DNA from: a phage
Assembly (NCBI GenBank): GCA_025830695.1
Contig: GCA_025830695.1_4111.1
DNA: 64,000 nt
Strand: one strand, 5' to 3'
The position numbers and the translations under genes were made by a program. Below the pieces are notes generated by a model that did no database searches, was not told where the DNA came from, and saw only the letters and a program-made list of their open reading frames with translations. Position 1 is the stretch's first letter. Every line of letters starts with the position of its first letter. Shown here one piece after another: positions 46,746 through 46,827 of the stretch.

Positions 46746-46827
46746 CCGGGCGTATCTCAACGGTCTTCTAAACCGTCGTTAATCGAGTAACTGGAGTATG
46801 CAGGTTCGAGTCCTGTCGCCTGGGCCA
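46746..46827 (+). ncRNA. atypical tRNA-like element (possible tRNA-Arg TCT or a tRNA-like stable RNA)
   Basis: canonical T-arm GCAGG-TTCGAGT-CCTGT, 7-bp acceptor pairing and encoded CCA, plus a perfect anticodon-like hairpin ACGGT-CTTCTAA-ACCGT; no room for a normal D-arm and about 6 extra nt. Confidence 0.4.

Follow-up and report, generated by a model that had tools for sequence, protein, structure and literature searches.

The phage sequence analyzed here, a stretch of 64,000 nucleotides (nt; the window) from contig GCA_025830695.1_4111.1, encodes at positions 46746–46827 of the + strand an element of about 82 nt, its CCA included, that lies just downstream of a tRNA-Ser gene. To judge from covariation, the element and its relatives are almost certainly a conserved structured RNA containing a short helix, termed D', that encloses the anticodon arm. 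The element is probably a functional, but topologically rewired, tRNA-Arg(UCU). The family to which it belongs is, on sequence comparison, a large and previously unannotated group of phage tRNA-Arg with changed connectivity.

A sequence-only reading of the window had described a T arm, a 7-bp acceptor pairing, a discriminator, and an encoded CCA, and all of these are present in the sequence at 46746–46827. Its anticodon-like hairpin reading TCT (Arg) is likewise there, with a perfect 5-bp stem and the loop CTTCTAA, as is its position directly after tRNA-Ser(TGA), which ends at 46741 according to ARAGORN and leaves a gap of 4 nt. The spacing also agrees with what had been noted: 7 nt (TATCTCA, 46753–46759) link the acceptor strand to the anticodon stem, and 23 nt (46777–46799) separate the anticodon stem from the T arm. 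With an acceptor–anticodon stem gap of only 7 nt, no local D hairpin is present between nt 9 and nt 26. Without CCA, the RNA of a family member is 79 nt long, compared to 74–77 nt for canonical tRNA-Arg. Scans with tRNA models gave a mixed result. The Rfam tRNA model RF00005 scored the element at 32.6 bits (E = 8.7e-4), above the gathering cutoff of 29, in an alignment that omits the D arm and places an insertion of about 20 nt in the variable region, whereas ARAGORN, run on the window, made no call at the element. A family-specific covariance model scored it at 96 bits (E = 2e-28), which is beyond chance by a wide margin, and found no second family copy in the window. The single-sequence fold has three helices (acceptor, anticodon, and T) and an unremarkable z of −0.6, so support for the structure is comparative, not thermodynamic.

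Homologs were collected by pattern scans of IMG/VR and JGI metagenomes and from fetched cultured-phage loci, which yielded 60 distinct copies in a viral/phage set and 84 in a metagenome set, 69 of the 84 being new. Alignment A1, whose first row is the window, comprises 51 distinct sequences, and alignment A4 the window with 63 new metagenome sequences; both have 79 columns and a single one-base indel. The structure tested consisted of the acceptor stem, columns 11–14 paired with 39–42 around the anticodon arm, the anticodon stem, and the T stem, with shuffled alignments and slid controls as nulls. Under this structure, 94.5% (A1) and 94.3% (A4) of cells are paired, and the covariation scores are 0.755 and 0.749, compared to 0.19 and 0.18 for shuffled alignments and at most 0.157 for slid controls. 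All four helices covary across two sets gathered independently, which together hold about 125 distinct sequences, 78–79 nt long throughout and drawn from unrelated phage lineages. In both alignments the acceptor stem shows double compensatory changes at 7/7 pairs, with 99% of cells paired, and the anticodon stem covaries at 5/5 pairs, with U33 and a purine at 37 present. In the T stem, where 99% of cells are paired, variation occurs at three of the five pairs and reaches both sides in two of them; the remaining two, G-C pairs adjoining the loop, are invariant, and the T loop is canonical, fitting UUCRANY.

The D' helix was overlooked in the sequence-only reading, which had found no D arm. That claim holds for a local D hairpin but not for its counterpart: 46756–46758 (CUC) and 46785–46787 (GAG) form a covarying 3-bp equivalent of the D stem around the anticodon arm, and a D-loop-like UGGAG is also present. 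The D' columns 11–13 pair with 42–40 in 51/51 sequences of A1 and 64/64 of A4. All three pairs form in 84/84 metagenome sequences, in whose selection neither D' nor the anticodon was used. When mutual information is computed without a structure model, pair 12:41 ranks third of all column pairs and is exceeded only by two anticodon-stem pairs.

The most conserved parts of the molecule in both alignments are the UAU of junction J1, a 7-nt bulge, and junction J2. J1 is invariant in A1; in A4 its U and A are invariant and its third base is U in at least 90%, with UAC in 4 of the 84 parsed metagenome members. The C and AA of the bulge are invariant across the family in both alignments, and the bulge may take part in tertiary contacts. 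The family consensus before the T stem is UAAYUGGAGUAU, of which AAYUGGAGUA is close to AAYUGGAUA, the D loop of canonical phage tRNA-Arg at the same loci; the canonical alleles of phages ph0011 and G17 have AAUUGGAUA. An A after GG occurs in 25 of 28 ARAGORN-called Arg tRNAs of these loci, two of the 28 being mis-registered copies of the element, compared to 65 of 580 non-Arg tRNAs. In J2 the A after GG is invariant and lies at 46795, a base that may occupy the A20 position in three dimensions.

We propose that the acceptor stem, T arm, and anticodon arm are canonical and that the 3-bp D' helix serves as the D stem. Its 5' strand, CUC, would follow straight after U8-A9-U and continue into the anticodon stem; because this run into the 5' strand of the anticodon stem is unbroken, it would take the place of nt 22–25. 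The partner strand, GAG, placed 3' of the anticodon arm behind the conserved 7-nt bulge, would stand in for nt 10–13. It would be followed by A14 A15 Y16 U17 G18 G19 A20 ... A21, that is, by the D-loop sequence AAYUGGAGUA with G18 G19 and A20, and then by the T stem. In canonical numbering the order would be 1–9, 22–43 plus a variable-like bulge, 10–21, U48, and 49–76, instead of 1–76. The U and A of J1 would correspond to U8 and A9, and J2 would map as A14 at 46789, A15 at 46790, G18 G19 at 46793–46794, A20 at 46795, A21 at 46798, and U48 at 46799.

In the tRNA core, U8-A14 stacks on 13-22, A21 lies beside nt 48, and the far end of the D stem brings nt 26, 44, and 10 together. Because of this stacking, the three altered links (9 to 22, bulge to 10, and 21 to 48/49) would join existing neighbors. 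The anticodon stem, one non-Watson–Crick layer, and D' would stack coaxially to give 5 + 1 + 3 = 9 layers, compared to 5 + 1 + 4 = 10, which makes an L shape with a near-normal anticodon arm plausible. U8 would pair with the A14 equivalent and GG would dock on the T loop, so that the rewired RNA probably keeps the L-shaped fold. This order would result if the D and anticodon domain were duplicated in tandem and two deletions followed.

Arginine identity is consistent throughout the family. In members ascertained without using the anticodon, the viral/phage set (n = 60) has UCU in 56, CCU in 2, UCG in 1, and ACG in 1, and the metagenome set (n = 84) has UCU in 78, CCU in 3, ACG in 2, and UCG in 1. 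Every anticodon is an Arg anticodon, with C35 and U or G at 36 in 60/60 and 84/84 members. U33 (replaced by C in a single metagenome member out of 84) and A37 are retained in the loop; 57/60 and 81/84 members have a purine discriminator, G or A, and 37/60 encode the CCA. The identity set of bacterial arginyl-tRNA synthetase (ArgRS) consists of A20, a major element, C35, U/G36, and A/G73. Canonical tRNA-Arg(UCU), whether the ph0011/G17 allele, the T5-like gene, or E. coli argU, has the same loop CUUCUAA, and the element likewise has the 7-bp acceptor, purine 73 (R73), CCA, the canonical T arm, and AAYUGGA with its A after GG. It differs in that its D-stem strands flank the anticodon arm, with no hairpin between nt 9 and 26, in that its D-loop sequence lies between the anticodon and T arms, and in the extra conserved 7-nt bulge.

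These features, together with the location of family members in phage tRNA clusters, make the element likely to be a working tRNA-Arg. AGA is rare in E. coli, where it is decoded by a minor tRNA; in the window, whose GC content is 33%, it makes up 26% of Arg codons (9.7 per 1000 codons). The host RNase P, ArgRS (via A20, C35, U36, and R73), EF-Tu, and ribosome would accept the RNA, and the element would decode AGA. The E. coli translation machinery accepts even a tRNA that has no D arm, and PNPase degrades that tRNA (PMC11551756), which fits with selection for a compact core. Why the rewired form persists may be explained in several ways: it could be neutral after its duplication-and-deletion origin, the RNA could escape a host or competitor factor that recognizes the canonical D arm, or the gene sequence could escape homing endonucleases, which are frequent in these tRNA clusters. 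We lean slightly towards the fuller view of a widespread elongator tRNA with non-cloverleaf connectivity, L-shaped and accepted by ArgRS, EF-Tu, and the ribosome, and maybe kept for its escape from a factor that targets canonical tRNA-Arg.

Several observations weigh against a rewired tRNA-Arg. D' has just 3 bp, the nearest-neighbor energy is 1.1 kcal/mol worse with it than without it, and the RNAalifold consensus does not contain it; because folding energy and RNAalifold disfavor D', it presumably needs tertiary contacts. Its fourth position, 46759:46784, is mispaired in most members (A·C or C·A, with A·C in the window) and is Watson–Crick or G-U in about one quarter. The invariance of J2 is partly built in, because most of the patterns used to gather members contain UGGAGUAUG; the search pattern behind most members contained TGGAGTATG. 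Seven members were ascertained without UGGAGUAU in the pattern, of which six keep UGGAGUAU and one has CGGAGUAU. The residue-by-residue numbering is argued from the sequence and known tRNA geometry. Lastly, locus L064 (− strand) has both the element, at 1614–1692, and a canonical tRNA-Arg(UCU), at 1522–1598, 15 nt downstream. This co-occurrence hints at incomplete redundancy between the rewired and the canonical form. Of 49 member loci, only L064 holds a canonical tRNA-Arg(UCU) besides the element; the remaining canonical Arg tRNAs in these loci read ACG, GCG, UCG, CCG, or CCU.

The best-surviving alternative, though an unlikely one, is that the RNA resembles a tRNA but has a role outside translation, such as that of a decoy or sponge against a nuclease directed at tRNA-Arg or some other factor that binds tRNA; it would then imitate tRNA-Arg without serving on the ribosome. 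The non-canonical core and the missing ARAGORN call would suit such a role, and so would the redundancy at L064, with its adjacent canonical gene, and at L084, with its two family copies, which is easier to explain if the roles differ. Phage tRNAs are also known to counter tRNA-cleaving defenses (PMC12409363, PMC10802454). However, canonical tRNA-Arg(UCU) substitutes for the element at the same locus in sister phages, and the element is usually the sole gene with a UCU anticodon in large phage tRNA sets. Features that matter for charging are retained as well (acceptor stem, R73, mostly CCA, C35, U/G36, and an A20-like residue), and no arginine-tRNA-specific defense was tied to these phages in this analysis. 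The tRNA-like stable RNA that the sequence-only reading offered as one option is thus a minority possibility.

A truly D-armless tRNA, with flexible connectors of 7 nt and 23 nt as in mitochondrial tRNA-Ser, is far less probable. It would agree with the minimum free energy (MFE) fold and the RNAalifold consensus, neither of which has a helix in this region, and with the Rfam alignment, which deletes the D arm. However, the supposed connectors are the most conserved columns, columns 11–13/40–42 covary perfectly over about 115 distinct sequences, the mutual information of 12:41 is among the highest, and the GG motif typical of D loops is kept. The armless tRNA of the sequence-only reading is therefore not sustained, as its 7-nt and 23-nt segments hold a covarying helix and a D-loop-like strand. 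D-armless mitochondrial tRNAs, such as tRNA-Ser(AGY/UCU), and mini HisT, a synthetic tRNA (Edelmann et al. 2024, PMC11551756), resemble the element in having a short connector and no D hairpin at the usual place, and they establish that translation can use non-cloverleaf tRNAs. They are short and truly without D stem and D loop, and the D/T-loop contact at the elbow is lost, whereas the element family keeps a D-stem equivalent and a GG strand and exceeds normal class I length. Natural armless tRNAs are reported only from mitochondria (PMC11551756), and the element family resides in bacterial phages.

Two further alternatives have very little to recommend them. A decaying tRNA-Arg pseudogene, with its D arm deleted and an insertion in the variable region, might be suspected from the element being un- or mis-annotated in most records and from the truncated and degenerate copies in L279 and L084. 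This reading, the disrupted gene of the sequence-only reading, is effectively refuted by the comparative data: about 125 distinct homologs of unrelated lineages have a uniform length of 78–79 nt, keep every helix through compensatory changes, and have invariant junctions, which is not how pseudogenes evolve. In circularly permuted tRNA genes the 5' half is encoded behind the 3' half, and a normal cloverleaf is regained by processing. A permutation of the element at the DNA level only, with cutting and re-ligation of the RNA restoring a cloverleaf, is brought to mind by the segment order (22–48, then 10–21) and by the RNA ligase and polynucleotide kinase that some phages encode. It would be a most improbable arrangement: the acceptor strands stand in their usual order, 5' before 3', the RNA would have to be cut twice and ligated twice internally, a bulge-helix-bulge motif is not apparent, D' covaries and needs no rearrangement to form, and the family spans phages of very different gene content. 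Circularly permuted and split tRNA genes (Cyanidioschyzon, archaea; PMC3978253, PMC3218864) likewise have a non-canonical segment order; the element differs from the permuted genes in swapping only the internal segments 10–21 and 22–48 between normal termini, and its mature RNA is expected to keep the swapped order.

The non-cloverleaf shape itself stood up to refolding, which gave three helices, and the rival helices failed comparatively. Pairing of CUC with the GAG of UGGAG (46794–46796) breaks pair 12:50 in 21/51 sequences and has no double changes. The MFE hairpin inside the 23-nt segment, a class II-type variable arm, is 60.9% paired, also with no double changes. A GUUA/UAAC hairpin would form a pseudoknot or clash with D'; its outer pair fails in 8/51 sequences, and its inner three pairs, UUA/UAA, never vary and so give no covariation signal. 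A tRNA-Leu(UAA), as annotated in phage 121Q, was rejected, as there is no supporting stem around GUUAAUC.

Other non-standard tRNAs leave the cloverleaf connectivity intact. tRNA-Sec, tRNA-Pyl, and allo-tRNAs (PMC7609411, PMC5389517) were also found by covariance or metagenome searches, some of them in phages; their arm lengths vary (8/4, 9/3, 6-bp D stem), whereas in the element the connectivity differs. According to a 2024 paper, all known bacterial tRNAs are cloverleaves (PMC11551756), and no phage example appears in a review of non-canonical tRNAs from 2020 (PMC7609411). If it is charged and decodes AGA, the element would be a natural counter-example to the universal bacterial cloverleaf and would show that the core of a tRNA can also be assembled from strands in another order. 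It would also offer a new scaffold for orthogonal tRNA design and supply the missing tRNA-Arg in hundreds of phage genomes, some with protein-coding genes drawn over it. In terms of phage–host conflict, one may ask what favors the rewired form. The proposed tRNA function is directly testable in E. coli, with the well-known phages Felix O1, phi92, and 121Q and with natural canonical alleles as controls.

The family is widespread in phages. A blastn search with a 91-nt region matched 685 phage records, many of which are canonical T5-like tRNA-Arg genes aligned over the 3' half alone. A 51-nt query confined to the non-canonical core retrieved 260 cultured phage records, by name from Escherichia (143), Salmonella (53), and Klebsiella (40), plus Proteus, Serratia, and Erwinia. 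Carrier records that were inspected belong to Asteriusvirus, Felixounavirus, Vequintavirinae, Justusliebigvirus, Sugarlandvirus, and a Streptomyces Karimacvirus; the Streptomyces phages came from the longer, 91-nt query. The window itself derives from a jumbo coliphage of Asteriusvirus type related to PBECO4 and 121Q. Two 'Campylobacter phage' records, A132 and A110a (MG065664.1, MG065689.1), have coliphage sequence of Felixounavirus or Vequintavirinae type at the element and are probably mislabeled or contaminated. No match to the element was found in 5,426 complete E. coli genomes or in 72,556 plasmids. A bacterial and archaeal scan, with one genome per species, contained only 2 true members among 100 model-scored stretches, drawn from 120 returned, and both members lie in dense, phage-like tRNA clusters on contigs of metagenome-assembled genomes. 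A second viral scan, with GTATC...CTTCTAA...CNTNAA, returned mostly chance matches in AT-rich coding DNA and yielded 7 new members and one truncated copy. Two copies depart from the family pattern: a divergent second copy at L084 13348–13426 scores 53 bits and has UAAUUGGAUAGAACAU as J2 and a weak D' helix, and the L279 copy stops right after GTAAT. Both may be decaying copies or evolutionary intermediates.

Records usually leave the element unannotated, and sometimes a coding sequence (CDS) is drawn over it. Where it is labeled, the labels are inconsistent: tRNA-Leu(taa) in 121Q and 'tRNA', 'tRNA-OTHER', or 'tRNA-Undet' elsewhere. Rfam 15, searched at a permissive E-value, has no dedicated family and returned only tRNA and a sub-threshold sX4 (30 vs 70 bits). 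No earlier description of this structure was found in the open-access full-text literature searched. The parts of the element and the features discussed below are listed in Table 1.

Table 1. Parts of the element, varying D' pairs, and associated genes. Coordinates are those of the window unless a locus is named.
Feature	Position	Strand	Remarks
Promoter-like site GGGACA, 16 nt, TG-extended TATAAT	46614–46641	+	consensus scan; upstream of tRNA-Ser
tRNA-Ser(UGA), canonical, encoded CCA	46652–46741	+	ARAGORN; Rfam 62.4 bits
Acceptor stem, 5' strand CCGGGCG	46746–46752	+	pairs with 46817–46823
Junction J1, UAU	46753–46755	+	proposed U8 and A9 equivalents plus one extra nucleotide
D' helix, 5' strand CUCA	46756–46759	+	46756–46758 pair with 46787–46785
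Anticodon arm	46760–46776	+	stem ACGGT (46760–46764)/ACCGT (46772–46776), 5 bp
Anticodon loop CUUCUAA	46765–46771	+	C32 U33 U34 C35 U36 A37 A38
Anticodon UCU	46767–46769	+	within the 7-nt loop
7-nt bulge CGUUAAU	46777–46783	+	family consensus C-R-U-Y-A-A-N; start of variable-loop position
D' helix, 3' strand CGAG	46784–46787	+	partner of 46756–46759
Junction J2, UAACUGGAGUAU	46788–46799	+	D-loop-like segment leading into the T stem
T arm GCAGG, loop UUCGAGU, CCUGU	46800–46816	+	stem strands 46800–46804/46812–46816
Acceptor stem, 3' strand CGCCUGG	46817–46823	+	7 bp including one G-U
Discriminator G and encoded CCA	46824 and 46825–46827	+	
D' pair 12:41	alignment columns		A1: UA 30, GC 13, AU 7, CG 1; A4: UA 38, GC 17, AU 8, CG 1
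D' pair 13:40	alignment columns		A1: CG 43, GC 5, UA 3; A4: CG 51, GC 6, UA 5, UG 2
Canonical tRNA-Arg(UCU) alleles	L001 926–999 (ph0011); L334 445–521 (G17)		
HNH genes 3' of the element	L004 1595–1942; L335 1546–1938; L336 2584–3093		

Comparison with the homologous locus in related phages, suggested alongside the sequence-only reading, was informative. Sister phages ph0011 and G17 hold a canonical 77-nt tRNA-Arg(UCU) in the slot of the element, which in these phages is bounded by tRNA-Ser(UGA) and a triplet of 54-aa open reading frames (ORFs), and the flanks are near-identical. The shared slot and near-identical flanks indicate that the element and canonical tRNA-Arg(UCU) are alleles of one locus. 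Closely related Asteriusvirus genomes thus carry either the rewired or the canonical tRNA-Arg(UCU) by precise cassette replacement. The copy of phage phi92 (L006 1505–1583) and a T5-like tRNA-Arg(UCU) (L008 1457–1528) have near-identical acceptor strands and T arms and an entirely different D and anticodon domain. This likeness suggests recombination between tRNA-Arg genes or a very recent common origin of the acceptor/T-arm domain. In the 49 member loci, four long (91–98 nt) ARAGORN calls of Arg(tct) coincide with copies of the element.

In the window, tRNA-Ser(UGA) and the element are probably co-transcribed; a scan found no terminator-like site between them. The promoter-like site upstream of the pair is only suggestive, because such sites are no more numerous in the consensus scan than in shuffles. 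HNH endonuclease genes lie directly 3' of the element in Felixounavirus (Felix O1-like) and Sugarlandvirus. A shared mobile cassette of element and HNH gene is not supported, as the Felix O1-like and Sugarland HNH proteins are not detectably related. In FO1a the annotated start of the HNH CDS is probably wrong, because it overlaps the RNA gene.

Downstream of the element, three tandem paralogous 54-aa ORFs (46849–47013, 47010–47174, and 47171–47335, + strand) each start with MTHEEWM, and successive stop and start codons overlap as ATGA. The ORF at 45847–46047, upstream, has a related N-terminus, and the 54-aa ORFs have no Pfam match. The triplet is retained in relatives with either tRNA-Arg allele. 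Elsewhere in the window, tRNA-Gly(UCC) at 45550–45622 scores 41.7 bits in Rfam, which is low for a tRNA; one pair of its anticodon stem is mismatched, its D-arm sequence is unusual, and its discriminator is U. Among the collected loci, ARAGORN called a tmRNA within a phage tRNA cluster (L074 6424–6703) and, on a viral contig, a 'tRNA-Pyl' with a CUA anticodon (L111 2109–2182) that is likely an amber suppressor.

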